Source: a bacterium
GTDB taxonomy: Bacteria > Bdellovibrionota_C > UBA2361 > SZUA-149 > JAEUWB01
Reading direction: 5' to 3'
DNA length: 64,000 nucleotides
Assembly: GCA_016786595.1 (NCBI GenBank)
Contig: JAEUWB010000035.1
Coordinates: 3,182 to 67,181, forward strand
Shown here: in pieces, positions 13,357 to 63,643 of the stretch
Numbering within the stretch: position 1 is the first letter of the stretch
How the letters are laid out: every line of letters starts with the position of its first letter
The notes under the pieces: model-generated
The model's input: only the letters and a program-made list of their open reading frames with translations
Databases searched by the model: none
Told to the model about the DNA's origin: nothing
Program-made: the position numbers and the translations under genes

Positions 13357-13431
13357 AGGAGTGTGTCCTCTTGGGGCGGAAAAGAGAAATCTGATCCGCC
13401 CCTGAACACACTCCTCCTACGACTTTTTTGG
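13357..13431 (+). terminator. Rho-independent terminator-like long GC-rich hairpin followed by a T-run
   Basis: AGGAGTGTGTCCTCTTGGGGCGG ... CCGCCCCTGAACACACTCCTCC, then TACGACTTTTTTGGG. Confidence 0.5.
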
Positions 13432-13630
13432 GCGACCTTTTTTGGCTACCTTTAGGTTACGAAACTCTGTCGCGTTCATTTTTATGATGTGATGTGCCGC
13501 AAGGTATAAATGTTTTTGCCTTGCACCCGCTGTGCGGGAGATTGCCGCGGCTACTAACGTAGCCTCGCAATGACAGTGAATGTCATTTTTATGATGTGAT
13601 GCAAAGCCAGTAGTCAATGGCATTACTGGC

Positions 13631-13757
13631 GTCATCTCGACCGAAGTAGTTCGTCTAAAATTTGTTTTAGACGAATTACGAGTGGAGAGATCTCCTAGAA
13701 TGATCCATTCTAGGATTTGGAGATTTCTCGACTCCACTTCGTGTCGCTCGAAATGAC
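13631..13757. repeat. Repeat family A: forward copy with a hairpin insertion (13631-13695) and a compact reverse copy (13715-13757), separated by the palindrome TAGAATGATCCATTCTAGG
   Basis: GTCATCTCGACCG...GAGTGGAGAGATCTCC on the forward strand, and on the reverse strand GTCATTTCGAGCGACACGAAGTGGAGTCGAGAAATCTCCAAAT. The whole 13417-13870 spacer is repeat-rich, including two copies of CATTTTTATGATGTGATG at 13474 and 13577. Confidence 0.6.
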
Positions 13758-13969
13758 GGTGCTTGTAGTTTTAAGCTGCTTTAGCAATCTCCAGCGCAAG
13801 CGGGGTTAGTGCTTTTAGTGTGTTCTTTGAAAATTTAATATGGGTGAGATTGGGAATATTTTAAGGTTATTATTTGTTTTATTTTTCATCGCTAATACGT
13901 TGTTTGGATTCCTCCCTGGTTTGCATTTTACCTGAAGTGCAAAGCCTGGAGGAATCCGACAACAAAACT

Positions 13970-15109
13970 ATGAAACTTTTCGATTGGCTTAACGGCCGCT
14001 TCGCCAGCGGCACCTCGTCAACCACGACCCCGCCGCCAGCGGCAGGGTCCACGACTTCGACTTCGACTCCGGCGGCAGCGCCAGCTCCGAGCCTTGTGAA
14101 ACAAGGATTCGGAGTCTTCGTGCGGACAGGGTTTTTCCTGGCCGCCTTCATCGTCGTCGGCGCGATCGCATTCTTTGCGATTCGTGCCGCCGTCCATAAG
14201 TCGCCCGAACAGGTGACTAAAGAGCGCGAGGCGAACGAACTTCGCATCGCGCAAGAAGAGAAGGTAAAAGCGGCCAAGGCTGCCTGGGACAAACCCAAGG
14301 CAGCATACGAAGACGCCGCTGCGGAACTTCCGGCGAAAGCTGAGGAAGTCCGCAAGGCCTTTGCCGCTCTCGACACCGTCGAGTTTGGCTCCGATGATCT
14401 CCACCCTGTGTGGAAGACCATGAAGGGCCGCGTTGACGGATTCTCTGATGAGAACGTCGACAAACTCCTCGATGCTGCTGAGCAAGCTGCCATCGCCGCC
14501 GAGACCAAGAAATCTCAAGGCCTCGATATTGCATGGCCAAGCGCTGAAACGGCAGTCGTTGAAGATGCTCTCGCGAAAGCGAAGGCACTCATCGGCGACA
14601 TTGCGGCTCTCGAAGCCAAGGGCACGTCCTTCACTGGAACCCCTGGCGCCGAGACTGCGTTAGCACGCTTCACGCGGGAAACCTCCGAACACGCTGCGGA
14701 TGTGGCGAAAGAAGAGGCGGATGCGAAAGTTGAGGACGCAAAGTTCGAGGCGGTCTGCTACGCGCAGTTCGACAAAATGGTCCTTAACGTGGATGCTAAA
14801 GGCAACCCGACGCCTCGAAAGATGCGCTGGCAAGCTCGCAGCATGTATCAGCTCGGCGAAAGTCTTCGCGAGTTCGAGACCGCCGTGTCTCTTGTCGCCA
14901 AGAAGGACAAGGCACGAGTGGGCTTTCTCTACGGTAATCCCGAAGAGATCAAAAAAGCCCACAAGTTTCTCAAAACTTGGATCGTCAACAACTTCGCTGA
15001 GTTTCTCACGGATCAAGAAGCACGCGACCTCGGTCAAGCGCTTCGCTATCCTGAGATCAAAGAGGTCCCCGACGTTGACGACATCAAGTCGCGCTGGAGT
15101 ATCGAGTGA
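13970..15109 (+). CDS. Membrane-anchored Ala/Glu/Lys-rich coiled-coil protein with a Thr/Pro/Ala-rich N-terminal linker; high-G+C gene. The ORF track starts it at 13874, but ATG 13970 carries the conserved leader.
   Basis: GGAGGAATCCGACAACAAAACTATG is a leader nearly identical to that of the 12479 gene. Low-complexity STTTPPPAAGSTTSTSTPAAAPAPS, TM helix FFLAAFIVVGAIAFFAI, then about 300 aa of charged helical sequence. Many long antisense ORFs (13879-14508, 14018-14518, 14217-14588, 14660-15037) indicate high G+C. Confidence 0.55.
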   Translation: MKLFDWLNGRFASGTSSTTTPPPAAGSTTSTSTPAAAPAPSLVKQGFGVFVRTGFFLAAFIVVGAIAFFAIRAAVHKSPEQVTKEREANELRIAQEEKVKAAKAAWDKPKAAYEDAAAELPAKAEEVRKAFAALDTVEFGSDDLHPVWKTMKGRVDGFSDENVDKLLDAAEQAAIAAETKKSQGLDIAWPSAETAVVEDALAKAKALIGDIAALEAKGTSFTGTPGAETALARFTRETSEHAADVAKEEADAKVEDAKFEAVCYAQFDKMVLNVDAKGNPTPRKMRWQARSMYQLGESLREFETAVSLVAKKDKARVGFLYGNPEEIKKAHKFLKTWIVNNFAEFLTDQEARDLGQALRYPEIKEVPDVDDIKSRWSIE

Positions 15110-15138
15110 GGCGGTGATGAAACTGTTGTCGGAAAAGT

Positions 15139-15185
15139 TCGAGAGTGGCCCAAAAGGCCCTCTCGACTTTTCCCTACTGTTTTTG
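15139..15185 (+). terminator. Terminator-like hairpin after the second high-G+C gene
   Basis: TCGAGAGTGGCC CAAAA GGCCCTCTCGA followed by CTTTTCCCTACTGTTTTT. Confidence 0.4.
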
Positions 15186-15282
15186 AGATTCCCAATCTCC
15201 CCGCCCTTTTATAATGATCGGGTTTAGATTGAATGATACAAATCGAATCAAGCAGTCATAACAATTACAAGAGTTTAAATTA

Positions 15283-15717
15283 ATGGACGAGAATTTAGAA
15301 AATTTAAAGCCAGCAAGGCTTGGCATCAAGGGTAAAATATTCTTTATTTCCTGTGGCTTAGGCTTTTTAGCCTTAGGCGTCTACGGTTCGGATTATATTG
15401 GAACAAATGGCCATGCATTTACCGCATCTGAAGAATCAGCAAGTTCTGTAAATGCAAACTATATTTGGGGCACTACTCCTTCTGGGGCTAGGCGGCCGAA
15501 TCCTGACATGGGATTTTTACAGAAAATCTTCTGCCGTGGGCGGAAAACATCAAGTTTCTGCACAGTCGAAGGATATCGCAGTGGCGATAACTACTTACAC
15601 CCATATTATCAATGGTGGTCAGACTGGGCCGCTCGCCCAGATGTAGATCTCGATGCACGCGGTAAACATGCCGCAGAGATGGAAGATATGGTCGGTAAGG
15701 CTCCAAATTCATTATAG
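15283..15717 (+). CDS. Hypothetical protein with an N-terminal hydrophobic segment
   Basis: ORF with TM or signal-like FFISCGLGFLALGVYG. No recognisable motif. Confidence 0.4.
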   Translation: MDENLENLKPARLGIKGKIFFISCGLGFLALGVYGSDYIGTNGHAFTASEESASSVNANYIWGTTPSGARRPNPDMGFLQKIFCRGRKTSSFCTVEGYRSGDNYLHPYYQWWSDWAARPDVDLDARGKHAAEMEDMVGKAPNSL

Positions 15718-15818
15718 TTTTTCTGGTTTAAACAATAATCGCATTTGAAAGGCACATCTTTTATTACAATCGCCATAACAGTTCTAGAAGTTAAAAATAC
15801 CTTAAGAGTTTAAGATTT

Positions 15819-16280
15819 ATGGATGTATTGAGCAAAGCAAATCTAAAAAAAATAAAGCTAAATTATTCGAAAGCTTGTAGCAGTTTTTATTCGCACTATC
15901 TGACTTTTACCTATCAACATCAGACCTTGATGTTGTTTGCACTTGGTTTTGTTACGCTAGCATGCGGACTTACAAGTGTTGCCATTGCTCAAGATGTAGG
16001 AATCGGTGACCCAAACTCAACAGGCGATACCAGAATCGGGGTATTTGCATGTCGGTTAATCCAACTTATTGAAGGTAATCTCGGCGCACTAATTATGATT
16101 GTCGCTGGTCTTGGCACAGTTATTTCTGCTGCGCTTGGCAGTTATGGACAAGCATTAAGTTTGCTGGTCGTGGCTTGTGCTTCATTTACACTGCGCTCAT
16201 TTGTAAGAATGTTTTTCGGCTATAATGGCGCTACAGTTCTAAATTGCGGAAATGGCGGAGGTTCTTCTTCGGCCGGTTAA
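15819..16280 (+). CDS. Small double-hydrophobic-segment membrane protein, candidate VirB2/TrbC-like T4SS pilin (hypothesis)
   Basis: Possible internal start at MLFALGFVTLACGLTSVAIA (signal-like). The mature part has two hydrophobic stretches (CRLIQLIEGNLGALIMIVAGLGTVISAALG and QALSLLVVACASF) and a Gly-rich C-terminus (GNGGGSSSAG), which resembles VirB2-type pilins. Followed by a strong terminator. Confidence 0.4.
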   Translation: MDVLSKANLKKIKLNYSKACSSFYSHYLTFTYQHQTLMLFALGFVTLACGLTSVAIAQDVGIGDPNSTGDTRIGVFACRLIQLIEGNLGALIMIVAGLGTVISAALGSYGQALSLLVVACASFTLRSFVRMFFGYNGATVLNCGNGGGSSSAG

Positions 16281-16346: not shown

Positions 16347-16461
16347 TACACGACTTGAGCTCTACTCTGCCTTTTTGTTCTTTTCCAGCTAGAGCAGCTT
16401 TCCCAAAACATTCAGTGTCGCCTGTTTGGAGATCCTTCGGCTGTGCCGAGCAAAAATAAAT

Positions 16462-16563
16462 TTGGCTCGTGCTCGCTCAGGATGACAATCTTTTTAGCGT
16501 TATAGATAATAAATACCGTCATCTCGAGCGAGCACGAAGTGCGAGTCGAGAGATCTCCAAAAA
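16462..16563. repeat. Repeat family A inverted pair (reverse copy about 16462-16488, forward copy 16518-16560)
   Basis: GGCTCGTGCTCGCTCAGGATGAC (rc GTCATCCTGAGCGAGCACGAG), then GTCATCTCGAGCGAGCACGAAGTGCGAGTCGAGAGATCTCCAAAAA. The two copies can form a long hairpin. Confidence 0.65.
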
Positions 16564-22560: not shown

Positions 22561-22612
22561 TGACGAGTATTGTAGTGGGATATTTGGCTGTGCGCCAGAT
22601 ATTATTTACGAC

Positions 22613-22685
22613 CTTGAAGCTAGGCTTGAACTTCAGCTTTAAATTTAGGTTAAGGGGAAGGGTAAGTTCAAGCCTAAGCCAAAGA
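22613..22685. repeat. Repeat family B inverted pair
   Basis: CTTGAAGCTAGGCTTGAACTTCAG ... TTAAGGGGAAGGGTAAGTTCAAGCCTAAGCCAAAG. Confidence 0.6.
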
Positions 22686-22706
22686 CTAACCATTCAGTAA
22701 AATTTA

Positions 22707-23322: not shown

Positions 23323-23408
23323 TAAGGGGAAGAGGGAAAATCCCGCGCAGGCAAATTTTAGGATGAGGCACTACGATTTATGGGAAAGTTCAAGCCTATG
23401 CCTAAGCA
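23323..23408. repeat. Repeat family B copy with an internal insertion of about 45 bp
   Basis: GATAAGGGGAAGAGGGAAAATCCC...GGGAAAGTTCAAGCCTATGCCTAAGC. Confidence 0.5.
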
Positions 23409-23454
23409 AAATGCAAAGCACAAGTCGCGCTAAACAACTGATACTTGTATATTA

Positions 23455-26309: not shown

Positions 26310-27944
26310 ATGATCAGCGCTGCTGTCGAACTCCGTGCCGAAGATTTTGTTAATCGTTTCGATTTTCTTGCCAGCTATTCGCCGCTCTATAAACTCGATG
26401 GCAATTGGCCAAGTGTTGGTATTGTAGATTTAATTACGCATTCATTACGCGGCAAATCGCAGCTTGATGCCGAAGACCAACAAACCCTGGCTGGGGCTGC
26501 TTGCTATCTGGCAAGAGTTTTGGATCCGCTTTGGGAGGCTGCGGGGCTGAAAGTTAGTGCAGTGCTTGTCGATGATATTTTGGAAGTTTGGTTTGAGCAC
26601 CCTGAGCAAACTGGAGCGCGTGGCGTGCTGCCGCTAGAAAAAGCTATCGGCGCATTTCTCTATCAACCGATTTTACCGCTGCCGATCACTAAGGATTATT
26701 TTCGCATCATTCCCCCGCAGAATAATTTCTTAAGCTTACTTGCGCTTGGGTTTGCTAACTTAGCGAGCCCATTTTTTAGCCAAGACTTCCCCAGAGTGCC
26801 TGCTCCTGATGCGTGGCGAGAGCTCCTTGCCAAACAAACTGCAGTGTCCTGGAAGTTACTCTATCCTAAGCGCACCTATGGGTTAGATTATAAATTATAC
26901 GACAGGGGGTTATTTTGGCCTCCACTTGCGTGTGGAGAGACTCCCCCAGGAATAAATCACCTCAAGCTTGCTTATCAGTATTTTAGCGACCAAAAATATT
27001 CTAGTGAGCAGTTGCTCGATGCAGCGCAATTTATGGCCGTGCACCCTGATGATCAAATCTCTCTTGTGGGTCTAATGCTTTGCGCGGGGTTAAGCAAACG
27101 CGATTTACCCACCGAGGTCGTGCTGCAAGCGCGAACTAAGGGTGTCGTGATGGCGGAGCTGCGTAGTGCCGTTTCTCAATTTCGACGCGAACTGGCTGAA
27201 AGCCAAGCCCAAGTTAAGGGCGGCGCGCAGCGCAGTGTTGCTGGCGATGATTGGTTTGCCGACACGTTATTTACGCCGCAAGATAAATTTAGGTTTGAGC
27301 TTGAGCGTAAGCTTGGAATGCTGCCTTGGTTTGTGATTGATGCGCAAGATTTGCTGTTGCGGATCAAGGATTTGCAACTACTTGTGACGGCTTTAGCGTA
27401 TCTTGATCTTGATACGGCGCTTCAGGAGGCGGATCGAATTTTAGAAGCAACCCCTGGAGATTTACTGATTGCAGTTCAAAAAAATGTGCTGCTCATGATT
27501 CAAGGCAAATTCGATGATGCCCAAGCAAACTTTGAAACGCTTGCTACTGAAGTTGGAGCGGAAGAGGACGCCTTAGTGCAGGAACAGCGTGGGTTGTGTG
27601 CTTTAGCGCGAGGCGATCAGGCGCTGGCCTTGTCATGTTTGACGCGAGCAAGTGTGCTTGCCGCGACGAAGAGTAGAGAAAGTCTTTCACGAATTGGCAA
27701 TAATTATGCCTGGGCATTGATGCTTGCTAACGATTACGAGGCCGCTTTAAAAATTCTTGACGATATAATTTCTATCGATCAATACCCGGTGACAGCCCTA
27801 TTAAATAAGTTATTTATCTTGCGGGTGCTAGGCAAAGATGAAGCGGCTAAGCCGCTAGAACTAGCCTTGGCTAAATTTGCGCCCTTGGACCGTCGGGTTG
27901 TTGAGCAGTTGATTGTGGGGCAGCGGGCGGCTCAGGAGTCTTAG
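26310..27944 (+). CDS. Hypothetical 544 aa protein with a TPR-like C-terminus; paralog of the 28577-30232 ORF
   Basis: N-terminal blocks align by eye with 28577-30232 (DFVNRFDFLASYSPLYKLDGNWPSVGIVDLITHSLRGKSQ vs WQTRFQKFPLLHLDHSWFSLGTVDHLALGLRGQKDY). The C-terminal helical repeats resemble TPR. Confidence 0.6.
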   Translation: MISAAVELRAEDFVNRFDFLASYSPLYKLDGNWPSVGIVDLITHSLRGKSQLDAEDQQTLAGAACYLARVLDPLWEAAGLKVSAVLVDDILEVWFEHPEQTGARGVLPLEKAIGAFLYQPILPLPITKDYFRIIPPQNNFLSLLALGFANLASPFFSQDFPRVPAPDAWRELLAKQTAVSWKLLYPKRTYGLDYKLYDRGLFWPPLACGETPPGINHLKLAYQYFSDQKYSSEQLLDAAQFMAVHPDDQISLVGLMLCAGLSKRDLPTEVVLQARTKGVVMAELRSAVSQFRRELAESQAQVKGGAQRSVAGDDWFADTLFTPQDKFRFELERKLGMLPWFVIDAQDLLLRIKDLQLLVTALAYLDLDTALQEADRILEATPGDLLIAVQKNVLLMIQGKFDDAQANFETLATEVGAEEDALVQEQRGLCALARGDQALALSCLTRASVLAATKSRESLSRIGNNYAWALMLANDYEAALKILDDIISIDQYPVTALLNKLFILRVLGKDEAAKPLELALAKFAPLDRRVVEQLIVGQRAAQES

Positions 27945-27959
27945 TAACAGAACTTTATT

Positions 27960-28026
27960 TTGGAGATCTCTCCACTATGCACATCGCCACTTTAAAGTGA
28001 CGATGTGCTTCGGTCGAGATGACGCG
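27960..28026. repeat. Repeat family A, reverse-orientation copy with an internal palindrome
   Basis: TTGGAGATCTCTCCAC...GCACATCGCCACTTTAAAGTGACGATGTGC...GGTCGAGATGACGCG. Confidence 0.65.
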
Positions 28027-28105
28027 ATTTTGAATGTCGATAGTAAAACTTAGCAACATATTTGGTAAGTGCTGCTGTCTTCATTTCTAATACCGACAAC
28101 CAGCG

Positions 28106-28172
28106 TCGTCATTTCGAGTGTAGCCTGAACGAACGGAGAGAGTGAAAGGCGAAGTCGAGAAATCTCCAAAAA
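28106..28172. repeat. Repeat family A, forward copy
   Basis: CGTCATTTCGAGTGTAGCC...GAAGTCGAGAAATCTCCAAAAAG. Forms an inverted pair with 27960-28026. Confidence 0.65.
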
Positions 28173-28207
28173 GATGTTCTAGGGGCGCTTGTTTCGTATG
28201 AACTTAA

Positions 28208-28516
28208 TTAGGCTGGCTTATTCACTCCTTGATTTAGCTCTTCGAATAGATCTCGCATCGCATAGTTACATTTGCTTATGAGTTCTAGCTTTTTCTTTCG
28301 CCCCCAGCGCTTGAGCTGTTTCTCTCTTTCGAAGGCATGATAAATGTCGAAGAATTCCTCAAAATATACTAGTTTACTAGTGCAGTATTTGTGCGCAAAT
28401 CCCGATTTTAGGCCCATTCTGTGCTGTAAAACTCTGTTAATTAGATCTGCTGTAACTCCAATATACAGCACCGTGTTCCAAGCGTTAGATAAAATATATA
28501 CGTAACTGATTTTCAT
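28208..28516 (-). CDS. GIY-YIG nuclease family protein (UPF0213-like small endonuclease)
   Basis: N-terminal YVYILSNAWNTVLYIGVTADLINRVLQHR shows the GIY...YIG spacing and downstream R/E residues. 102 aa. Confidence 0.75.
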   Translation of the reverse strand: MKISYVYILSNAWNTVLYIGVTADLINRVLQHRMGLKSGFAHKYCTSKLVYFEEFFDIYHAFEREKQLKRWGRKKKLELISKCNYAMRDLFEELNQGVNKPA

Positions 28517-28576
28517 GTGATCGTCCTCCTCGAGTATATTATCGTCCCGATCAGAAGAATTATTGCTGGAGGATGA

Positions 28577-30232
28577 CTAAAGTTTCCCTAAAACTTCCTT
28601 TGTCCACTCGGGCGAATCAGGGTCAGTGAAGTAGAGGATATTTCTAAAAACCTCAGGATGGGTGGGTAAGAAATTCATCGTGGTTTTCACGTCTTGGGTA
28701 ACTAAATCAAATTTTTGCAATTGGGAATTAATCACGGCGCGATTAATTAATGAAAAAATATGCAGTGGCCGTGCTTCCAGAATATCAGAAAAGGCCTTGA
28801 GTGCTTGCTCGTTTTCGTTTTTTACCATTAAAAGTGTTGCTAAATTTGTGCGGATTAAAAGGTCTTGGCGCCTAAAGCCGCGCACTAATGATTGTGCAGT
28901 GCGAAAATAGTCAAAAGCTTGATCTGGCTTATTCATGCGTAGCGCACACAATCCCAGTAAATAATGAATCTGGGCCTCATCTTTACATTCAGGCCCATCC
29001 TTCAGGGCATCCTGTAGATTCGTGTATGCCTCCTGCATGCCGCCACGTAACATGACTAAATAGGCAGCTTGGGCACGTACGGCCGGTGCTTCGCTGGCAA
29101 GTAATTTTAAGTCCTCGCTAATTTGGCAGGCTGATTTTAGATCTAGTGCGGCAATTGCCGAAAGTAGTGGTCGCAAGCGATTACGCATTAAGTCGGCGTG
29201 TTCAAGTTTGAGCCAGGGGTGAAATCCCAACTCGGTTTCAAGTAGAATGGCATCAGCTTCGGGCTCAGCTAATTTTTCGATTTCAGTCCAGCGCTCCGTT
29301 CCCCAAATAATTTGATAGGCTTGGGCGTAGGCTTCACGCAGTTGGCAAATCCTTAGGCCTTTTGCTTCTGAAATAGCTAAGACTTCTTCAGGTAGAGCTG
29401 ATCCGGATGTTGCGGCAAGTAAAATAAATCCAAAATCAGACAACTGCTCTTCAGCAACTCGCGCTAAATTTGTGCTAAAGGCGCTAATATGATCTGTGCC
29501 AATACCAACTTCAGCTGCGTATTCGAGAAAGCGGTTAATTGCTCTAGTGTAGGGATAATCTTCTTCAATATATGGAGGCGGAAAAAGTACACCTTCCATG
29601 TAGACTTCTGGGGATTGGCCCACGAGCTCGGCAGGAAAGAGCTTGCCGTAAGTATCGGCGCAGGATTGAGCAATTTTTTTCACAGCTTGCTCTAGGGTTG
29701 GTTGGTAATCGAGAAAGCTTAATTTTTTTTCATTACCTTCACTCTGGGCACATAGTCCTAGAGCTAAACTTGCCGCGAAGAGGTTGATTAGTTGGGAATT
29801 AAAGGCGACGGGACGCAGGGTGTCTCCGATGTAGGGGAAAAGAATTTCGGGACGGCTGAGGCGTTGTGCGATTTTCTCCTGGATATGGACGAAGTATGGT
29901 GTCGGGGATTTGTCGGCAAGATTTTCCAGTGAATTTTGTGCCTCGAGGTAGATGCCGATGCGCTCACTAAATTTAATTAGTCCTTGGTCGGACTTGATGC
30001 CGACTGATTCTAGAATTGGGGCAATGATTGTGCCGAGGTAAGCTGAGATTCCGGTTAGTAATTCGAGGTCTGCGCTAGAATAGTCTTTCTGTCCGCGAAG
30101 TCCCAGGGCGAGGTGATCGACCGTGCCGAGGCTGAACCAGGAGTGATCGAGGTGGAGGAGGGGGAATTTCTGGAAGCGGGTTTGCCAGTAGGCAGCAAAG
30201 TCTTGTGCGATTTTTGAGGTTTGCTCTGTCAC
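28577..30232 (-). CDS. Hypothetical 551 aa protein with TPR-like C-terminus; paralog of 26310-27944
   Basis: See 26310-27944. Convergent orientation with its paralog. Confidence 0.6.
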   Translation of the reverse strand: MTEQTSKIAQDFAAYWQTRFQKFPLLHLDHSWFSLGTVDHLALGLRGQKDYSSADLELLTGISAYLGTIIAPILESVGIKSDQGLIKFSERIGIYLEAQNSLENLADKSPTPYFVHIQEKIAQRLSRPEILFPYIGDTLRPVAFNSQLINLFAASLALGLCAQSEGNEKKLSFLDYQPTLEQAVKKIAQSCADTYGKLFPAELVGQSPEVYMEGVLFPPPYIEEDYPYTRAINRFLEYAAEVGIGTDHISAFSTNLARVAEEQLSDFGFILLAATSGSALPEEVLAISEAKGLRICQLREAYAQAYQIIWGTERWTEIEKLAEPEADAILLETELGFHPWLKLEHADLMRNRLRPLLSAIAALDLKSACQISEDLKLLASEAPAVRAQAAYLVMLRGGMQEAYTNLQDALKDGPECKDEAQIHYLLGLCALRMNKPDQAFDYFRTAQSLVRGFRRQDLLIRTNLATLLMVKNENEQALKAFSDILEARPLHIFSLINRAVINSQLQKFDLVTQDVKTTMNFLPTHPEVFRNILYFTDPDSPEWTKEVLGKL

Positions 30233-36343: not shown

Positions 36344-36346
36344 CTT

Positions 36347-38836: not shown

Positions 38837-38841
38837 CTTTT

Positions 38842-38983: not shown

Positions 38984-39009
38984 TTTAGGTAAAGATTTTT
39001 AAAAATAAT

Positions 39010-41145
39010 ATGCCACCAGAAACGGATGGAGTTGCAATTGGTGCTGTAGGGCACTTAATCGCTGCAGTGATGCAGACAGCTGGCATGTATGGCCAGTCTG
39101 AGATTCTTGCGACTATGCAGTTCTGGTTTCAACAAATGGGAGCGCTGATTTTTATTGCTTTCGCAGCAATGGCTCTCGGCCAACTTGTCATTTTTGGATC
39201 CTATCGCGGCGCGCTTTGGTTTGTGATCGCGCCTGTTCTCTTTCAATATGTAATTTTCTCTAAGCAAAATGTTGAGCTTACCAATTGGAAGTTTGGTAAC
39301 CGTTACGGTGAGAATGCCGGGCTAAATAGTGGAGAAGAGGAGTCAAAGGCTGCGATTGAGGAAAAGCTCAAGGAACTTAAGGTAGAGCTTCCAGAAAATG
39401 GAACAGCCTACTTATCGAATATATTTGTTGAATTTGACAAAGCAGTTTCTGCTATCGTGCAAAACACAGTAGCATTTCTAGTCGACCAAGATCGCCAAAG
39501 CGACCTTAAGTTTGTTGCCCGCATGAAATTATTCGAATCGCTCTTTCAAGAGCGACCCAATAGCGCAGGCTTGCATGAACTGATTATGACGGGTCTTGTC
39601 GGTGAGTGCGGGCAAGCGACAAATAATATGCAATCGCTCTCAAGTATTAAAATTCTAGAAGAGAAAGCCCGTGCTAAGGGTTCGAGTTTAGATCCGAAAA
39701 TTTTAGAACAGAAAAGCAAACTCGAAGAAGAACAAGCTCGCATATTTAGTGACCGCAAAGTGCAGTTTTCACGACCAGTTTGTCAATACTTGCAAGACTT
39801 ACAAGGTTGCTTCATTGGCAGCAATTTTCAGGAATTAAATTGCACACGTCCGGACTTGTACGGCTGCTATGAGCCACTATCCTACCTGCGCCCGAGTGAA
39901 CGCGGGAGTCAAGACTCGGCATCATGTAGCGACGTTTGGAAATATGTTTTCTTAGGTACATACCAGGAAGCAAAATATAAATTTGAAAAACTTGCTAAGG
40001 AAAACACCAAGCTTGGGTTGAAATGGGAAGACTTAGCAAAAGAAGTCTTGGAGAAAATTCCAGCCACTGGGGAGATTGATAATCCTGAAGTTTCTTCAGC
40101 AGCGTTTCAAGTGATTGCCGGACATTTACTACAGAACCATGTGCTGAGAACTCCTCACGGCGCATTAACTAGTGGCCTTTATGGTCGTCTGACTGAACAC
40201 TCGCAGATGACTAGTGAGATATTTGAATGGGGACAAGATGCTGAATCAATCGGGGATCAAGCATACTTATTAACGCTCAGTGGAATGCTACCTTATATTC
40301 AAGGTGTGGCCTTGTTTCTACTGTCGATTACTTTCCCATTCTTTGCGTTGTTCTTATTAATGCCAGGAAGAGTGAATACATTTTTCATGTGGCCTGCAAT
40401 GTGGATTTGGGTCAAGTCTTGGGATATTGGCTATGCACTTGTGCACATGATCGAGCAGCTGCTTTGGGAATTCATGCCGCATGTTGTACGTAGTGAACTT
40501 AGTGCTTACACAGCAGACTGGACGAATCCGAATTCAATTTGGACCACAATCTTTAGCAATGACCCAGTTTATTCGCCGAATTTATATTACTCCGTTTTAG
40601 GCGTATCGACTTTAGCAATTCCGGTGATCACGGCCCACCTGACCATGGCCAGTACTGACTTACTTGATGTATTTAACTCACGCCTGTCTTCATATGGCTC
40701 TCGTGTTCAAGCGCGTCAAAAGAACGTCGAGCGTAACCGCTTAGGAGGAACTCGAGATAATGAGTGGAAAATGGCTACTGGTGAAGCATGGGATAATGCA
40801 CGTGTCGCCTTAATGAAAAGTGAAGCTGGTAAAGCTAAGAAAAAACAAGGCGATGGTCTTTATGCCCGCTACGTCGATGCTAAAGCAAATCTTGCGCGTT
40901 TTGAGCGCAGTCACGATGATGACATTATTTGGCAAAAATCTTCAGCCAATATGCTGCGGGGTGCTCGTAAGATGAACTACAGCGCTAAATACACACAACA
41001 AGCAATCGATTCAGAAGCAGAATTGTATATCCAGGAAAAGGGATACGAGAGTGGCTTCTATGGATCAGAGAATTACGATACTACAGCGACGAATGCAGAT
41101 GCTTCAGTTTCGTCGGGTGGTGATAATGATGGTTCTGGAGAATAG
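39010..41145 (+). CDS. Tandem paralog 3 of 5 (711 aa)
   Basis: VGHLIAAVMQTAGMYGQSEIL, TM (IFIAFAAMALGQLVIFGSY), LPYIQGVALFLLSITFPFFALFLLMPGR...WPAMWIWVKSWDIGYALVHMIEQLLW. Confidence 0.7.
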   Translation: MPPETDGVAIGAVGHLIAAVMQTAGMYGQSEILATMQFWFQQMGALIFIAFAAMALGQLVIFGSYRGALWFVIAPVLFQYVIFSKQNVELTNWKFGNRYGENAGLNSGEEESKAAIEEKLKELKVELPENGTAYLSNIFVEFDKAVSAIVQNTVAFLVDQDRQSDLKFVARMKLFESLFQERPNSAGLHELIMTGLVGECGQATNNMQSLSSIKILEEKARAKGSSLDPKILEQKSKLEEEQARIFSDRKVQFSRPVCQYLQDLQGCFIGSNFQELNCTRPDLYGCYEPLSYLRPSERGSQDSASCSDVWKYVFLGTYQEAKYKFEKLAKENTKLGLKWEDLAKEVLEKIPATGEIDNPEVSSAAFQVIAGHLLQNHVLRTPHGALTSGLYGRLTEHSQMTSEIFEWGQDAESIGDQAYLLTLSGMLPYIQGVALFLLSITFPFFALFLLMPGRVNTFFMWPAMWIWVKSWDIGYALVHMIEQLLWEFMPHVVRSELSAYTADWTNPNSIWTTIFSNDPVYSPNLYYSVLGVSTLAIPVITAHLTMASTDLLDVFNSRLSSYGSRVQARQKNVERNRLGGTRDNEWKMATGEAWDNARVALMKSEAGKAKKKQGDGLYARYVDAKANLARFERSHDDDIIWQKSSANMLRGARKMNYSAKYTQQAIDSEAELYIQEKGYESGFYGSENYDTTATNADASVSSGGDNDGSGE

Positions 41146-41147
41146 GC

Positions 41148-43577: not shown

Positions 43578-43579
43578 GT

Positions 43580-49593: not shown

Positions 49594-49637
49594 CTTCGGC
49601 TTAGGCTTGCACTGCTCCTTATCCTTACTCTTAACCT
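49594..49637. repeat. Repeat family B, reverse-orientation copy upstream of the four-helix-bundle gene
   Basis: CTTCGGCTTAGGCTTGCACTGCTCCTTATCCTTACTCTTAACC (rc about GGTTAAGAGTAAGGATAAGGAGCAGTGCAAGCCTAAGCC). Confidence 0.5.
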
Positions 49638-49700: not shown

Positions 49701-50078
49701 ATGGAGGCAATTGCATCTATGTTCAGTCATCAAAAATTATATGTATATCAAAAGGCTATAACTTATTTTTCAAAAATTGCAGACATTCTTGTCCAAATTC
49801 CACCGGGGAACAAAGACATCGTAAGCCAGTTGAGGAGGGCAGCGATCTCAATAGCGCTTAATATTGCCGAAGGTGCAGGTAAGACAAGTTCTATGGATAA
49901 AAGACGTTTTTATTCGATAGCACGTGGCTCTGCTTTAGAATGTGCTGCGATATTTGATTTATTGGTTATCTTGAAGCTTTCAAGTGAGGAAGAATTGAGC
50001 GAATGTCGCGCACTTCTGAGCGAAATTGCGTCAATGTTTTCAGCTATGACACAGGTGAACAAAAAGGTCGAAGGCTAA
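49701..50078 (+). CDS. Four-helix-bundle protein (TIGR02436 / S23p type, the family typically encoded inside 23S rRNA intervening sequences)
   Basis: YQKAITYFSKIADIL...LRRAAISIALNIAEGAGKTSSMDKRRFYSIARGSALECAAIFDLL is the characteristic pattern of this family. The stop codon lies inside the downstream family-B repeat. Confidence 0.75.
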   Translation: MEAIASMFSHQKLYVYQKAITYFSKIADILVQIPPGNKDIVSQLRRAAISIALNIAEGAGKTSSMDKRRFYSIARGSALECAAIFDLLVILKLSSEEELSECRALLSEIASMFSAMTQVNKKVEG

Positions 50079-50103
50079 GGGGAAGTTCAAGCCTAAGCCT
50101 AAG
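50073..50103. repeat. Repeat family B, forward copy immediately downstream of, and overlapping the stop of, the four-helix-bundle gene
   Basis: GGCTAAGGGGAAGTTCAAGCCTAAGCCTAAG. Confidence 0.55.
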
Positions 50104-52066: not shown

Positions 52067-53053
52067 ATGAAGTCAGTAACATTTTCATTTCGCACGGAAA
52101 CAGCGCTTTTTTCTTTGGCCTTTGGCGGGCTGCCACTGCGTGAGCAGGCGTTTAAGGGGGCAATGCGCTACTGGTATAGGGCCTTCTGTGCTTCTGCTTA
52201 TAATCTTAAATCTCTTGCGCATAAAGAGTCGCAAATTTTTGGCTCTAGTGGGAGACAAGGCCAGGCCACGAGGGGAGTGCGTCTCCAACTAATCCGACCA
52301 AACGTCCTGCCCCAAGAAATCTCGCCACAGCCACACAAGGAACGGGTTAAACCTTTGCGCGCCTTGCCAGCGCGGCATGAATTTCAACTTGTGTTATCAC
52401 AACCACACTCGATGCGTGACGAGGATTTTCTAAAAGCCTGTGCTGCACTTTGGCTTGCTGCTACAATCGGTGGATTTGGTCGGCGTTCGCGACGTGGAGC
52501 GGGAGGAGTGCGGGTTATTTCAATCTCAGGTTCGTATCAACTGAACTTGCCAGTAATCCATCAGCAGTGGTCGAGTGACGAACTTAAGAATGCATTAAGT
52601 GCCGGTTTAATTGAAGCCAGAAAAATATTATTCGAAGGCGGAAAAAATATTGAAACTCCCAATCAGTTGCGCGGCGATATCCCACAACTGGTTAGCGGTA
52701 AAGATGGTTCGCATATTATTATTTCTGACCTCGGCCCTAGTAGCGAAGCCGAAGCGCGCGCTAAGCTCATGCTTAAGTTACGGCAATTTAAAAACCAAAT
52801 TTTTGGTTTGCCGTTGAAGATCAATCAGGGAGAGAATGGAGCGCAGGCAGAACGAAAAGAGCGCTTCAGTCGAGAAGGTTCCAAGCGTTATGCATCACCA
52901 GTATGGATCAGGCTAATTGAGTTAAAGAGCGGGTGGACAATGATTGTCACACTCTTATTGCCGCTGCCCCGAGTTAAAACGGCCAATCGAGATAAGCTAG
53001 ATGAATTTTTAGCTGCGCTCAAGCAGAACCGTAAAGAGGTTGCAATTCCATGA
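52067..53053 (+). CDS. cmr1: Type III CRISPR RAMP protein, Cmr1-like
   Basis: N-terminal TETALFSLAFGGLPLREQAFKGAMRYWYRAF matches the Cmr1 LFxGG...RxxSxKGALRFWFRA signature. QIFGSS block. Gly-rich loop GGFGRRSRRGAGGVRV. First gene of a four-gene operon with overlapping stops and starts. Confidence 0.6.
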   Translation: MKSVTFSFRTETALFSLAFGGLPLREQAFKGAMRYWYRAFCASAYNLKSLAHKESQIFGSSGRQGQATRGVRLQLIRPNVLPQEISPQPHKERVKPLRALPARHEFQLVLSQPHSMRDEDFLKACAALWLAATIGGFGRRSRRGAGGVRVISISGSYQLNLPVIHQQWSSDELKNALSAGLIEARKILFEGGKNIETPNQLRGDIPQLVSGKDGSHIIISDLGPSSEAEARAKLMLKLRQFKNQIFGLPLKINQGENGAQAERKERFSREGSKRYASPVWIRLIELKSGWTMIVTLLLPLPRVKTANRDKLDEFLAALKQNRKEVAIP

Positions 53054-53844
53054 GCGAGAAAACAGTTTTTATTCATGCCTTAACGGGCATTGGCTCGACC
53101 GGTGAGAAAACTGCAAGCCTGACTTATCTACCACGCGCGGCCATGGAAGCGGCCATAGACACGGATTTAAAAATTCCAGTCATCAGAACCTCAACCTTAA
53201 TGCGGGCGTTGCGGCATGCTAAAATTACAATCAATCCTGAGAATATTTCTTATGACCCGAGCTTATTGCTTTTACCGGTGCGCACCCCCGCGGGACTTTT
53301 TGCCTGGATCACTTGTCCGGCAGCGCTCGGGAAAATGAAATTACTCGGGTCGAATAGCAATCAAACGATCCAAGGCTTTACTTTTAATCCTGAAGTTCAA
53401 GCTTACGTTACACGGTCGTGTCAAATTTTACTCGATCGGGAATTAATAATTGAAGAATATTTCTTACGTTCAAAATACAGTAATGAACTTGATGTGATCG
53501 CGCTTGAACTTGCAAAAAATATTTTTTCTGACCCAGGATATGAATGGTGGCAAAAGAAACTCCAAATGGATCTCGTTGTCGTCAGTAACCAAACCTTTGC
53601 TGCAATGCTGCAAACGGCCCTGGAAATACGCGCACGTGTTGCCGGCAATTCCGCTCAAATCGCAAGGAAGACTCCCTACCTCTACGAAGAGCTATTTCCA
53701 GCAGAAGCGGTGCTAATTACCGCTTTAGCTGCAGAAAACTTGCCAACAGAGACAAAATTAATTGAACTCGGGAATAATCTTAGCACCGGACGAGGGCTAT
53801 CTCGACTAATTATGAGAGCAAGTAGTTATGACCTTGGAGCATAA
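53050..53844 (+). CDS. cmr4: Type III CRISPR backbone RAMP, Cmr4
   Basis: Start overlaps the cmr1 stop (ATGA). Cmr4 signature blocks: LLLPVRTPAGLFAWITCPAALGKMK (thumb region: L.PVRS..G.FAyvTSP.vL.R), ARKTPYLYEELFPAEAVLITAL (gaLfyeE.lPaesvfy), and terminal Gly-rich loop ELGNNLSTGRGLSRL. The N-terminal IPVIRTSTLMRALRHA corresponds to the IPGSSLKGVLR block but is divergent. Confidence 0.65.
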   Translation: MSEKTVFIHALTGIGSTGEKTASLTYLPRAAMEAAIDTDLKIPVIRTSTLMRALRHAKITINPENISYDPSLLLLPVRTPAGLFAWITCPAALGKMKLLGSNSNQTIQGFTFNPEVQAYVTRSCQILLDRELIIEEYFLRSKYSNELDVIALELAKNIFSDPGYEWWQKKLQMDLVVVSNQTFAAMLQTALEIRARVAGNSAQIARKTPYLYEELFPAEAVLITALAAENLPTETKLIELGNNLSTGRGLSRLIMRASSYDLGA

Positions 53845-54259
53845 AACAGCTGATCGCGGAACTGCGGTAGTTGCTGCGGCAGACAATTTATTTTCTGCTG
53901 CACTAAAGCGCCGAAAATCTGGCGCAACTAAAGCGCTGATTTATCGTATGCCGGTTGTGATTGCACGCCATGGTATCGGACAAGCTATTGCTGAATTAGA
54001 GCAGAGTCCAGTAGGTAAAATGGTTCGACATTATTTAGGACTTTGGATCTGTGAACAAGCAGGAAGCGATGCTCAAAAGCTTAAAAATTTTCGCACTGCA
54101 GCTTGGGAAAGCGATTCGCAGTTGGTAATGTCAATCACTAGCGCAGCGCTCAAATTTTTTGCCCTGCAAGCTCAGCAATTCACGCAAGTGCAGACTGATT
54201 TGCAGGAGAATCTGGAAAGTCCCGAACAGACAGCCACAATTGATCAACTAAACGAGTAA
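53828..54259 (+). CDS. cmr5: Small alpha-helical subunit, Cmr5-like (143 aa)
   Basis: Overlaps the cmr4 end. All-helical, right size, and MPVVIARHGIGQAIAEL resembles the Cmr5 aPVmIlsnGLlQTLAFL block. Weakest of the four assignments. Confidence 0.45.
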   Translation: MTLEHKTADRGTAVVAAADNLFSAALKRRKSGATKALIYRMPVVIARHGIGQAIAELEQSPVGKMVRHYLGLWICEQAGSDAQKLKNFRTAAWESDSQLVMSITSAALKFFALQAQQFTQVQTDLQENLESPEQTATIDQLNE

Positions 54260-54280
54260 CACTGAACGAGTAAGACTGAG

Positions 54281-55498
54281 ATGAGCGAAAAAACAGGCAA
54301 GATCATTAGCTATAATGCTGCCAACAAAATGGGAGAAATCGCTTTTGCCGGTTTTGATGTCCCTGCGCGGTTCTATCTTTCTGTTGTTACGAACCCGACA
54401 CCTGAACCAGTTAAGGGTGACCAAGTGAGTTTCGCAGCAGCAGATCCGGTAAAAAATAAAAAAGGAAAATACTCGCCTGTAACTGCAAGTACGGTAACTA
54501 TTACTGAGCGTTCTCCCGTACGGGAAGAGGAGAAAAAATTTGATGCAACTGCTCAAAGTTTTCGCACGACACTGCAGCGTGGAGCTCGTAATGACCGCTC
54601 CAGAAACAACCGCACAAAATCAGCTTCAAAAATTTCGCAGCAAGCTCAAGAATTACGTGTGATCCCTAAGCGACAACTTTCGCTACGCATTGCCCATGAT
54701 GCAACTCCACTGCCGCGTGATATGCGTCGACGTATGGTCAATTGGGGCACTGCTAATCCAGCTTTTTTGCTAGCAAAGGGCATTTCCTGGAAGCATGCTG
54801 AAAATAATGAATTTGAGCGTAATCGCGATCATTTTCGGCATTTTATGCACAAAACATTTCTGCCGGTTTATCAAAATGCAGTGAAGAATCTTATCCCTTT
54901 AGAGGCACTCAAAACTCGGCAGATCCAAATTTATAAATCCCTACGAACTCAGGGCTATTTACTCGATCATCGTGTTTTAAAATTATCTACACCACTAGTG
55001 CTTGGGCAGAATGCTTCTAGTTTATTACGGCAAATCAGTGTCGTTACTGACCATCTTTATGGTTATCCTGTGGTGCATGGGTCAATGATCAAGGGAACTT
55101 TTAAAGAATATCTACAAAACTTACTGGCTGGAGATCCTGGACTTGCAGTAGCTAGAGATTTTGAACAAATTTTTGGGACAACAGAGGCACCAGGCCGGGT
55201 GATCTTCTTTGATTCTTTTCCTACGCGGGCTTTGCCTGATCTTGGATTTGAAACTCTGCAGGATTCATTCCCTGCTTGGTATCATGGCCGGGGTTCTGCA
55301 GCTGATACTCAGTTACCTGAACGAGACTATCTATCTGTGATTAAACCTGGAGCTGAATATACATTTAGTTTTGCGTTGAGGCCTGGCTCAGAAGAGTCGC
55401 TACTTGGCACGGTAGGGAACTTATTGCAGCAAATGCTTGTTGAGTTTGGGCTGGGATCAAGAACCGCCCTAGGATATGGGCGATTCAGGGTTAACTAA
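54281..55498 (+). CDS. cmr6: Cmr6-type RAMP with an N-terminal cold-shock domain (CSD) fusion
   Basis: aa 1-70 KTGKIISYNAANKMGEIAFAGFDVPARFYLSVV...KGDQVSFAA follows the CspA pattern (GxVKWFNxxKGFGFI...VFVHxSxI...GxxVxF). The C-terminal half has Cmr6 blocks PVVHGSMIKGTFKEYL (pyIPGSSlKGvlR), EQIFGTTEAPGRVIFFDSFP (lFGs...G.v.F.DA.P), DSFPAWYHG (tPHy.pYY) and the terminal Gly-rich loop EFGLGSRTALGYGRFRV. Confidence 0.6.
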   Translation: MSEKTGKIISYNAANKMGEIAFAGFDVPARFYLSVVTNPTPEPVKGDQVSFAAADPVKNKKGKYSPVTASTVTITERSPVREEEKKFDATAQSFRTTLQRGARNDRSRNNRTKSASKISQQAQELRVIPKRQLSLRIAHDATPLPRDMRRRMVNWGTANPAFLLAKGISWKHAENNEFERNRDHFRHFMHKTFLPVYQNAVKNLIPLEALKTRQIQIYKSLRTQGYLLDHRVLKLSTPLVLGQNASSLLRQISVVTDHLYGYPVVHGSMIKGTFKEYLQNLLAGDPGLAVARDFEQIFGTTEAPGRVIFFDSFPTRALPDLGFETLQDSFPAWYHGRGSAADTQLPERDYLSVIKPGAEYTFSFALRPGSEESLLGTVGNLLQQMLVEFGLGSRTALGYGRFRVN

Positions 55499-57724: not shown

Positions 57725-57870
57725 AGATTTGCGAGAGATGACAAGAAGTGAAATCGAACGCTCGGGTCTAAGATAAGATCACAGTGGTAGATGACAATCT
57801 ATTTGCGTTTTGTGTCATTGCTTCGGTCGCTACCCTCCCTCGCTATGACTGGTGAAAACTTAGTGAACAG
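57725..57870. repeat. Degenerate repeat family A cluster (several GTCAT...GAG termini in both orientations)
   Basis: GCGAGAGATGACAAG, GTAGATGACAATC, GTGTCATTGCTTCGGTCGC...CTCGCTATGACTGG. Confidence 0.45.
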
Positions 57871-61628: not shown

Positions 61629-63000
61629 CTGCCATTGCCTCCATCATTGCTTCGGATAGTGTTGGGTGAGCGTGGATAGTATTAGCTACGCTCGTTGCTG
61701 TGCCTTCTAATGAGCGAATCACTGAAGCTTCAGCAATTAATTCTGTAGCCTCAGGATGTAAAATGTGGACTCCTAGTACTTCATCAATGTCGGCATCGAC
61801 AACGACTTTCACGAATCCATCTGTTTCATTAGAAGCTACTGCTTTGCCGCTGGCGCTAAAGGGGAAGCGCCCGATGCGGACATTTTTCCCTGCGTCGCGT
61901 GCGGCTTTTTCGGTCATGCCAATTGAGGCGACTTGTGGTTTGCAATAGGTGCAACCCGGGATACTCGTATAGTCGAGTGGATGAGTGTGGTGGTTGGCGA
62001 TGACTTCTGCGGCGATAATGCCTTCATGACTTGCGACGTGGGCAAGTAGTGGTGGGCCAATCACGTCTCCAATCGCGTATACGCCGGGCACGCCAGTACG
62101 ATAATATTGGTCAACTTTAATAAAAGATTTTTCAGGTCGAATGCCGATTTTTTCAAGGCCAAGATCTTCTACATTGCCTTGAACGCCGACAGCCACGAGG
62201 CAATAGTCGCCCGACCATTGTTCGACTTTATCGCCGCTTTTAAGAAGTGCGTTAACGCTATTACCTTTGCGCGTTAGGCTTTCGACGACAGTTTTAGTTT
62301 TAATTTCGATTTTCTGATTTTTAAAGATTTTTTCTAAGCCTTTTGCGCAGTCTTGGTCCTCGATCGGTAGGATTTGATCTTGAAATTCAACGACTGTTAC
62401 TTCTGCGCCGAAGGTGCTGTAGAAGTAGGCAAATTCGATGCCGATTGCACCGGCACCAACGACAAGTAATTTCTTTGGACATTCGTTGAGGGCCAAGGCG
62501 TGGCGATAAGTAATCACGCGTTCGCCGTCGACGGGAAGGCTGGGCAGTGTTTTTGCGCGGGCTCCTGTAGCGATAATTACATTCTTGTAACTATAGGATG
62601 TTGCTTTGCCGGCTGAGTCTTTAACGACAACAAAGTTGCCAGCTTCAAGGGATGCGGTTCCGGGGATGAGATCGACTTTGTTTTTTTTGAGCAGGAATTT
62701 TACTCCGCCAGTCATTTTATCGACAACGTTACGAGAGCGTTTGATGATTGCCGGGAAGTCAGCTGTAATGCCGGAGGCGTTTAGTCCGTAGCTGCTAGCG
62801 TGTTGCATGGTTTGAAATACTTCTGCGCTTTTGAGCAGCGCCTTTGTAGGAATACAACCCCAGTTTAGGCAGATGCCGCCGGGGGATTCTTTTTCGATGC
62901 AGGCTGTTTTTAGGCCAAGTTGTGCGGCGCGGATTGCGGCGACGTAGCCGCCTGGGCCTGATCCGATGACGATGCAATCATATGAATTTGTTGCTGACAT
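61600..63000 (-). CDS. lpd: Dihydrolipoyl dehydrogenase (E3)
   Basis: FAD motif IVIGSGPGGYVAAIRAAQLG, redox disulfide GGICLNWGCIPTK, NAD motif, and C-terminal HAHPTLSE. Confidence 0.92.
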   Translation of the reverse strand: MSATNSYDCIVIGSGPGGYVAAIRAAQLGLKTACIEKESPGGICLNWGCIPTKALLKSAEVFQTMQHASSYGLNASGITADFPAIIKRSRNVVDKMTGGVKFLLKKNKVDLIPGTASLEAGNFVVVKDSAGKATSYSYKNVIIATGARAKTLPSLPVDGERVITYRHALALNECPKKLLVVGAGAIGIEFAYFYSTFGAEVTVVEFQDQILPIEDQDCAKGLEKIFKNQKIEIKTKTVVESLTRKGNSVNALLKSGDKVEQWSGDYCLVAVGVQGNVEDLGLEKIGIRPEKSFIKVDQYYRTGVPGVYAIGDVIGPPLLAHVASHEGIIAAEVIANHHTHPLDYTSIPGCTYCKPQVASIGMTEKAARDAGKNVRIGRFPFSASGKAVASNETDGFVKVVVDADIDEVLGVHILHPEATELIAEASVIRSLEGTATSVANTIHAHPTLSEAMMEAMADALGRAIHI

Positions 63001-63180
63001 ACTTTTGTCCGTTGATATAGTTTCTTTGTTTATCTAAGTTAAAGAATTTAAAGCAGAGAAACTAGGATATTCTTCGCGAGATAACAAGGGGTGCAAAATA
63101 AGCACTTAACATCGGGTATCTTGTTGAAAACTTTACTCATTCGGCAATCCGTTTTAGATTGCTGAGAAGTGGCAAATGTG

Positions 63181-63254
63181 CGCCCTTAGCTCAGCTGGAT
63201 AGAGCAACTGGCTTCGAACCAGTAGGTCGGGAGTTCGAATCTCTCAGGGCGCGA
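63181..63254 (+). tRNA. tRNA-Arg (anticodon UCG)
   Basis: Cloverleaf folded by hand: acceptor GCGCCCT/AGGGCGC, D-arm GCTC-AGCTGGATA-GAGC, anticodon arm ACTGG-CTTCGAA-CCAGT (UCG), T-arm GGGAG-TTCGAAT-CTCTC, discriminator G. No encoded CCA. Confidence 0.85.
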
Positions 63255-63535
63255 TGGCTAGAGAAGTGCAGAGGATTTGCAACTAGAGGATTCGAACCGG
63301 GCGGCCGTTAGGCTGCCGAATCAGTAGGGTGAATCTCTCAGGGCGCGATGGCTAGAGAAGTGCAGAGGATTTGCAACTAGAGGATTCGAACCGGGCAGCC
63401 GTTAGGCTGCCGAATCAGTAGGGTGAATCTCTCAGGGTGCGGTGGCTAGAGAAGTGCAGAGGATTTGCAACTAGAGGATTCGAACCGGGCGGCCGTTAGG
63501 CTGCCGAATCAGTAGGGTGAATCTCTCAGGGCGCG
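63255..63535 (+). repeat. Three tandem 93-94 bp direct repeats, each ending with the last 17 nt of the adjacent tRNA-Arg (GAATCTCTCAGGGCGCG)
   Basis: Units 63255-63347, 63348-63441, 63442-63535, differing only by a few substitutions and one 1-bp indel. Begins exactly at the tRNA 3-prime end. Confidence 0.85.
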
Positions 63536-63554
63536 CTTAAAATCGCTTACTGTT

Positions 63555-63614
63555 GTCATCTTGAGCGGAGCGAGTTTCGCTTTGCGAAGCTCGCGGAGTC
63601 GAAAGATCTCCAAA
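63555..63614. repeat. Repeat family A copy
   Basis: GTCATCTTGAGCGGAGCGAGTTTCGCTTTGCGAAGCTCGCGGAGTCGAAAGATCTCCAAAT. Confidence 0.6.
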
Positions 63615-63643
63615 TTAGTTTTGCCAGATACGTAGGAATGCAT

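Follow-up and report, generated by a model that had tools for sequence, protein, structure and literature searches.

What are the short, often inverted repeats that recur between the genes of a 64,000-nucleotide stretch of a Bdellovibrionota_C genome (contig JAEUWB010000035.1; hereafter the window), and which protein, if any, recognizes them? A sequence-only reading had grouped them as a dispersed family, family A, and had likened them to miniature transposable elements with inverted repeats (MITEs), repetitive extragenic palindromes (REPs), or structured RNA elements. We conclude that family A is very probably a divergent sub-type of the Ssn-related motifs (SRMs), the broader class that includes the Neisseria Transformation Sequence (NTS), CGTCATTCCCGCGMAVGCGGGAATCYRG (Chenal et al., Nat Commun 2025; PMC11893778). 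Its cognate would be an ssn-like GIY-YIG nuclease encoded in the window, with a mechanism that we assign by homology.

Dispersed repeats with a covarying outer helix

Family A is real. Its 3′ terminus, GTCGAGARATCTCCAAA, occurs nine times in the window when up to three mismatches are allowed (0.35 expected), and a two-terminus pattern, GTCATYTYGASYG N{12,42} GARARATCTCCAAA, matched five times there and in none of 100 shuffles. We built a covariance model, R1, from 24 copies, all from genomes other than the window's. In the window it found seven copies and no more at E <= 2e-6 (Table 1), and the next-best match (E = 0.07) fell within a methyltransferase gene. The termini of family A copies have the form GTCATYTYGA...ATCTCCAAA. 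All seven copies, a density of seven in 64 kb for the window, lie between credible genes and are covered only by spurious overlapping open reading frames (ORFs); both the dispersal and the intergenic placement claimed by the sequence-only reading were borne out. Six of the seven are arranged as inverted pairs, of which one is tail-to-tail and the other two are head-to-head, and both orientations relative to neighboring genes occur. A replication-strand bias was considered and rejected: the copies split 4(+)/3(-), and the GC skew is positive across the whole window.

The earlier list of copies was changed in several places. Its second pair exists, but the minus-strand copy starts at 16425 and not at 16462. 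A proposed fragment at 12420-12455 has only CTCGAGCG in common with family A and gave no R1 match. The supposed degenerate copy at 57725-57870 does not belong to family A; what the region contains is a remnant of another SRM sub-type, one similar to the GTCATTGCGAGG...GCAATC type (copies at loci L032 and L054), and its stem and 3′ C are mutated.

Table 1. Repeats of the SRM type and the associated nuclease gene in the window (positions are those of the whole stretch)
Feature	Position	Strand	Evidence	Remarks
SRM-type repeat, long inner hairpin	13629-13698	+	R1 29.2 bits, E = 2e-6	Degenerate tail CTCCTAG; left member of tail-to-tail pair; DNA fold z = -3.6, from inner hairpin
Compact SRM-type repeat	13716-13759	-	R1 61.3 bits, E = 4e-16; exact two-terminus match	Right member of tail-to-tail pair
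Degenerate SRM-type repeat, stem CCT/AGG	16425-16488	-	R1 37.2 bits, E = 8e-9	Left member of head-to-head pair
Compact SRM-type repeat	16516-16561	+	R1 48.1 bits; exact pattern match	Right member of head-to-head pair
SRM-type repeat, 13-bp inner hairpin	27959-28025	-	R1 50.9 bits	DNA fold z = -6.5; 15 nt past stop of gene 26310-27944
SRM-type repeat, cassette downstream flank	28106-28170	+	R1 49.8 bits	37 nt past GIY-YIG gene stop codon, inverted relative to gene
ssn-like gene, 102-aa single-domain GIY-YIG nuclease	28208-28516	-	Pfam PF01541, E = 5e-13, residues 4-76	
Probable degenerate SRM, GTCATCCTCC...GGAGGACGATC, cassette upstream flank	28519-28577	-	Read from sequence	
Relic of different SRM sub-type, GTCATAGCGAGGGAGGGTAGCGACCGAAGCAATGAC	57815-57849	-	Read from sequence; no R1 match	
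SRM-type repeat between tRNA-Arg tandem repeats and rpiA	63553-63614	+	R1 55.5 bits, E = 2e-14	Fold z = -2.4

A copy consists of GTCAT, an outer stem that encloses a free inner hairpin, and ATCTCC(AAA). Read base by base, the order is GTCAT, three variable bases, GA, S, Y, G, the interior, R, a bulged pyrimidine, S', GA, the three-base complement, and ATCTCC(AAA). The outer helix is accordingly irregular, running A-T, T-A, N-N', T-A, N-N', tandem G.A/A.G, S-S', the bulged pyrimidine, and Y-R. At the 5′ end the signature is (Y)GTCAT; GTCAT stands in 7/7 window copies and does not vary among the 24 from other genomes. The ...AT-C that follows the stem is likewise present in 7/7 window copies and invariant in alignment A2. 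The apical hairpin can have any sequence and is 0-40 nt long. Some copies have no interior at all, some have the 7-nt mini-hairpin GCGAAGC, and others carry private, near-perfect hairpins of 11-15 bp. The single mismatches that interrupt long inner hairpins, seen in three of the window copies, are all G.T.

We examined the outer helix in an alignment of the 24 copies from other genomes, pairing columns 6-10 with 49-53 and columns 13-14 with 46 and 44. In this register 98.2% of cells were paired, compared with only 25-68% in slid controls. Compensatory double changes occurred in 4/7 outer-helix pairs (23 cells), a result reached by 0/500 shuffles. The Y, R, and S positions, which the search pattern leaves free, covary as Watson-Crick pairs (Fisher p = 8e-5, 3e-3, and 2e-7). 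The outer helix is a hairpin-forming semi-palindrome of the kind characteristic of SRMs.

A helix supported by covariation could in principle be RNA, in which case the copies would act as small RNAs, transcript-stabilizing hairpins, or terminators, and the G.T mismatches of the inner hairpins are wobble-compatible. We regard such a role as highly improbable. At gathering threshold, Rfam returned only tRNA from the whole window, and a permissive Rfam scan of 27900-28250 (E <= 10) gave a single chance-level match (E = 3.7). Between 12000 and 30000, no copy falls on any of the 21 terminator-like sites, the hairpin is not followed by a T-run, and terminator and promoter sites were both counted at chance level. 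The two orientations of the copies relative to neighboring genes also argue against an RNA, as does the frequent apical motif GCGAAGC, which is a very stable mini-hairpin of DNA. Characterized Ssn protein, finally, binds no RNA (PMC11893778). With no Rfam family matched and no terminator-like features at the copies, we do not retain the suggestion of structured RNA elements.

The GIY-YIG gene and its flanking repeats

The sequence-only reading had treated the GIY-YIG gene at 28208-28516 as an accessory gene at whose boundary repeats happened to lie. We instead presume that its product belongs to the Ssn family and is the cognate of the repeats. In Neisseria, ssnA is a 94-aa single-domain GIY-YIG gene of family cd10448, and its homologues are flanked by SRMs (PMC11893778). 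Ssn proteins have a single domain and about 94-100 aa, and Pfam likewise found no second domain in the 102-aa window protein. Residues Y7, Y18, and E65 are invariant in a 33-sequence alignment (A1) and match the catalytic residues Y6, Y17, and E64 of Neisseria meningitidis SsnA, which were mutated in the published work, by spacing, not by direct alignment with that protein. Homologues at 46-56% identity to the window protein are flanked by canonical NTS, and three of them (L033, L083, and L087; 47-48% identical) carry the exact Neisseria NTS consensus on their flanks. Among solved structures, those closest to the window protein family are 1zg2 and 1ywl, of the UPF0213/YhbQ type (profile E = 1e-9 and 3e-7). 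These share the same small single-domain GIY-YIG fold but are distant from the window protein, scoring 41 bits vs. 82-99 bits for the Ssn-like homologues, and we know of no association of UPF0213/YhbQ proteins with flanking hairpin repeats.

The gene appears to sit in a cassette that spans 28106-28577 and reads repeat(+), ssn, repeat(-). The downstream flank, 28106-28170, is an unambiguous copy. The upstream flank, 28519-28577, is probably a degenerate SRM: it has GTCAT...GATC ends, and a weak fold pairs both of them. This hairpin stops 2 nt short of the start codon of ssn, and its 3′ arm, GGAGGA, also serves as the ribosome-binding site of that gene. On the other side, the TAG stop of the TPR gene at 28577-30232 shares its last base with the first G of the hairpin. 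A similar unit was found in a Christensenellaceae metagenome-assembled genome (MAG; locus L016), where a 54%-identical gene lies between (+) and (-) copies of the window sub-type (cassette 7-452: copy 7-59, ssn 116-403, copy 408-452). A gene-less pair (548-600 and 635-679) follows, whose left and right ends, together with a few flanking bases, nearly match the ends of the cassette. The arrangement looks like an autonomous unit beside its deletion derivative.

To gauge the association without reference to the repeats, we used 80 metagenome loci picked solely by GIY-YIG homology and scanned them with two rules. Together the rules found 173 elements, vs. about 3 in shuffles. A (+) copy stood within 150 nt upstream of the gene at 34/71 loci with enough flank, and a (-) copy within 150 nt downstream at 39/70, mostly 0-25 nt past the stop; the window copy at 28106-28170 shares the position and orientation of these downstream copies. 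Correctly oriented copies within 150 nt were present on at least one side at 41/61 loci and on both sides at 24/61, with 0-1 in shuffles. The published figures are at least one SRM at 71% of ssnA homologues and SRMs on both sides at 42% (PMC11893778). Near the gene, 25 of the 80 loci have repeats that fit the published string, 34 have only repeats of the GTCAY-xyz-GA kind, and 21 have no repeat of either kind. Repeat sub-type and protein similarity showed no link: identity to the window protein is 54% for the L016 protein, whose gene has repeats of the window sub-type, and 46-56% for the NTS-flanked homologues.

Spread across phyla and comparison with known repeats

Outside the window, we scanned one genome per species with the two-terminus pattern and found 24 exact matches, for which a rough chance estimate is well below one. 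They fall in Clostridia, Bacteroidota, Balneolaceae, Chloroflexota, Patescibacteria, and Gammaproteobacteria, the genomes being Clostridia MAGs, Olivibacter, Cyclobacteriaceae, Balneolaceae, Cryptobacteroides, an Anaerolineales MAG, a Moraniibacteriota MAG, Marinicella, and a Pseudomonadales MAG. The same loci carry further copies with the stem triplets TTC/GAA, CTC/GAG, CCC/GGG, TGC/GCA, and TCT/AGA, inverted pairs 30-130 nt apart, and stacks of 5′ half-copies. The family is therefore not peculiar to this organism, and its presence in many phyla sets it apart from a species-specific MITE or REP family. The pattern had no match in 2.9 million viral contigs. In two Olivibacter species, an orthologous copy (L006 6481-6537 and L009 988-1044) has identical termini (14/14 and 22/22) around an inner hairpin in which roughly every second position differs; over the 900 nt around the copy, identity is 89%.

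These data bear on the possibility that family A comprises REPs or bacterial interspersed mosaic elements (BIMEs) mobilized by an IS200/IS605-like REP-associated tyrosine transposase (RAYT) elsewhere in the genome, with the GIY-YIG gene as a bystander. The resemblance is genuine: in both systems, oriented intergenic hairpins are, or for family A would be, recognized in single-stranded DNA (ssDNA), inverted pairs occur, and copies flank the gene for a known or presumed cognate nuclease. REP families, however, are species-specific and confined to lineages, whereas family A is common to many phyla; the REP enzyme is an HUH/Y1 transposase and not a GIY-YIG nuclease. Pfam detected no Y1/HUH domain in any sizeable ORF of the 64-kb window, nor any TnpA, RAYT, or other transposase. 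The association with the GIY-YIG gene is moreover strong and specific in position and orientation in an unbiased sample. We find a RAYT-driven origin scarcely credible. The label REP-like holds as a functional analogy (oriented intergenic hairpins, inverted pairs, and a small nuclease gene), not in the sense of an IS200/IS605-type REP. The authors of the Ssn work draw a REP analogy themselves and also remark on the insertion-sequence-like cassette (PMC11893778).

The closest match is to NTS and the other SRMs. Like them, the window repeats are oriented, multi-copy within the window, and intergenic; they have (C/T)GTCAT directly before the hairpin and ATC directly after it, and the order repeat(+), ∼100-aa single-domain GIY-YIG gene, repeat(-) appears to be the same. 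Unlike the perfect 8-bp stem of NTS, the window stem is irregular, with tandem G.A pairs and a bulged pyrimidine. Where NTS has a loop, copies of the window type carry a free hairpin at the apex that can reach about 40 nt, so that they are 42-70 nt long against about 28 nt for NTS, and their conserved tail is CTCCAAA in place of CYRG. Family A also recalls dRS3 of the pathogenic Neisseria, a short palindrome that lies between genes and numbers hundreds of copies. dRS3, however, has the form ATTCCC-N8-GGGAAT and no orientation, whereas the window stem differs in sequence and has oriented flanks. About half of the dRS3 repeats are actually NTS (PMC11893778).

Several results weigh against assigning family A to the SRMs. 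The published string, HGTCWYN(0-2)YYVSBRHN(0-5)WNVSBRGN(0-2)RNCYNB, matched nothing in the window on either strand, even with its loop widened to 50 nt, although it picked up the canonical NTS controls as well as 27 fetched loci. Three traits put the window copies outside the string: a GA mismatch pair that follows the first five pairs of the stem, a bulged pyrimidine, and a long free interior. We therefore file family A as an SRM variant and not as a plain member. As naked ssDNA, the outer stem is weak and is absent from the minimum-energy fold of several copies, and fold z-scores were significant only for the copies with long inner hairpins (Table 1); the case for the outer helix thus rests on covariation and not on energy. 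The upstream flank of the cassette is degenerate and was missed by R1, which is specific to the sub-type, so that our confidence in this flank is only moderate. The window GIY-YIG protein had no NCBIfam match and no single-sequence match in the Protein Data Bank. Among 24 8-kb loci seeded by the hairpin, only 1 contained an ssn gene, which is expected for dispersed repeats and adds no support.

The biochemistry of the family suggests how the window's system may work. Four purified Ssn proteins bound the hairpin only as ssDNA, with the cut falling a few nucleotides upstream of it; they did not act on duplex DNA, on RNA, or on the opposite strand (PMC11893778). The three nucleotides before the palindrome were needed for cleavage, the C directly after it was the base most critical for binding, and in N. 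meningitidis the enzyme lowers transformation by NTS-carrying DNA (PMC11893778). From these properties we infer the binding, cleavage, and cellular role of the window's nuclease. The strand that reads GTCAT...ATC would fold when the DNA becomes single-stranded, as may occur in uptake, conjugation, replication, or repair. The nuclease would then bind the hairpin base and its flanks and cut a few nucleotides 5′ of GTCAT, leaving double-stranded DNA, RNA, and the complementary strand intact, as the Ssn enzymes of Neisseria and Wolbachia do. Because only one strand would be cut, inverted pairs would place one cleavable site on each strand. Fragmentation of repeat-carrying ssDNA would limit recombination across segments bracketed by repeats, and it may also help the repeats to spread.

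Recognition of the hairpin base alone would fit what is seen in the copies. The apex varies from copy to copy, and cutting still takes place when the hairpin is divided between two oligonucleotides (PMC11893778). The Olivibacter copies, with identical termini around a diverged interior, fit equally well.

A further alternative concerns mobility. The repeat(+)-ssn-repeat(-) cassette might be an active autonomous element like an insertion sequence, driven by the action of its nuclease on ssDNA, with gene-less pairs (e.g., 13629-13759) as non-autonomous, MITE-like derivatives and the repeats primarily selfish instead of serving the host in the control of recombination. Its architecture is that of an insertion sequence, L016 has a full cassette followed by a gene-less pair with near-identical ends, and termini are near-identical in distant phyla. 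The stacks of 5′ half-copies point the same way. They lie directly upstream of a full copy, the unit being GTCAT, the 5′ arm, and a 3-16 nt spacer, repeated 1-4 times, and we counted 25 5′ halves within 60 nt upstream of full copies vs. 8 3′ halves downstream. Stacks occur at L024 3427-3566(-), L053 899-973(-), L074 1776-1840(+), L082 ∼300-330 and 1210-1240(+), L021 5413-5466, L059 997-1042, and L008 7875-7933; the Ssn paper does not mention them (PMC11893778). They may be the footprint of nicking just upstream of GTCAT.

Against an active element, no target-site duplications were seen. The pair at 13629-13759 is flanked by ...ctggc and ggtgc..., and no DDE transposase was found in the window, so that a MITE in the classical sense is not supported. 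Metagenome contigs L025-L027, from the same organism, are sub-fragments 99.8-100% identical to the window and reveal no polymorphism. We know of no strand-transfer activity in GIY-YIG nucleases. The absence of matches among the viral contigs counts against such an element as well, and the orthologous copy kept in two Olivibacter species suggests stability, not turnover. An active, primarily selfish element of the insertion-sequence kind is thus rather improbable. The related idea that the cassette is a still-active ssDNA mobile element using only its ∼100-aa GIY-YIG nuclease, with MITE-like gene-less pairs and half-copies as nick-and-copy footprints, is also unlikely, if a shade less so. On that reading, recognition of nothing but the hairpin base would let the apex carry any sequence, and this would account for the private inner hairpins as well as for the spread of near-identical termini across phyla. 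We therefore retain the assignment of family A to a divergent SRM sub-type with an ssn-like cognate.

Neighboring features and implications

Several other features of the window adjoin the repeats. The copies at 13629-13759 and 16425-16561 bracket a segment of 58% G+C (13874-16280) in a genome of 45% G+C. The segment holds an ORF at 13874-15109 (58% G+C) and two small ORFs without Pfam matches. That copies bracket this segment and the ssn gene resembles the repeat-gene-repeat layout of Neisseria. The copy at 63553 adjoins a tRNA-Arg(TCG) followed by three 94-bp tandem units (63179-63535), each of which ends in a copy of the tRNA 3′ end; the units resemble scars left by serial integration.

A second dispersed repeat family, with the core TAAGG..AAG...AAGTTCAAGCCTAAGCCTAAG, has an inverted pair at 49594-49626 and 50071-50103 (85% complementary) that brackets a gene for a 23S rRNA intervening-sequence protein at 49701-50078 (PF05635). 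Members also occur at 12205-12345, 22600-22700, 23365-23425, and 27280-27330, and two gene-less inverted pairs are among them. The layout of flanked gene and gene-less pairs is that of the SRMs, but the protein is different. Elsewhere, 33578-46378 contains five tandem paralogous genes (711-932 aa) with weak TraG_N matches and a conserved 80-nt block that recurs every 2.0-2.6 kb. Two RAMP-superfamily proteins (PF03787) are encoded with neighboring ORFs at 52067-55498; no CRISPR array was seen in the window. The transketolases closest to that of this organism, 58-62% identical, belong to Bdellovibrionota/Oligoflexia MAGs.

A description of the Ssn/SRM system dates only from 2025, and the window repeats form a sub-type that the published string misses. 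This variant is divergent, common, and so far under-counted: because 34 of the 80 ssn loci have only GTCAY-xyz-GA repeats, current counts of repeats and carrier genomes are probably underestimates. With its conserved base and free apex, the hairpin gives a hint as to what the nuclease recognizes in it, and such enzyme specificity is relevant to the proposed use of Ssn proteins as programmable single-strand cutters. For annotation, the repeats explain many spurious short ORFs, and they mark segments in which recombinational exchange may be restricted.

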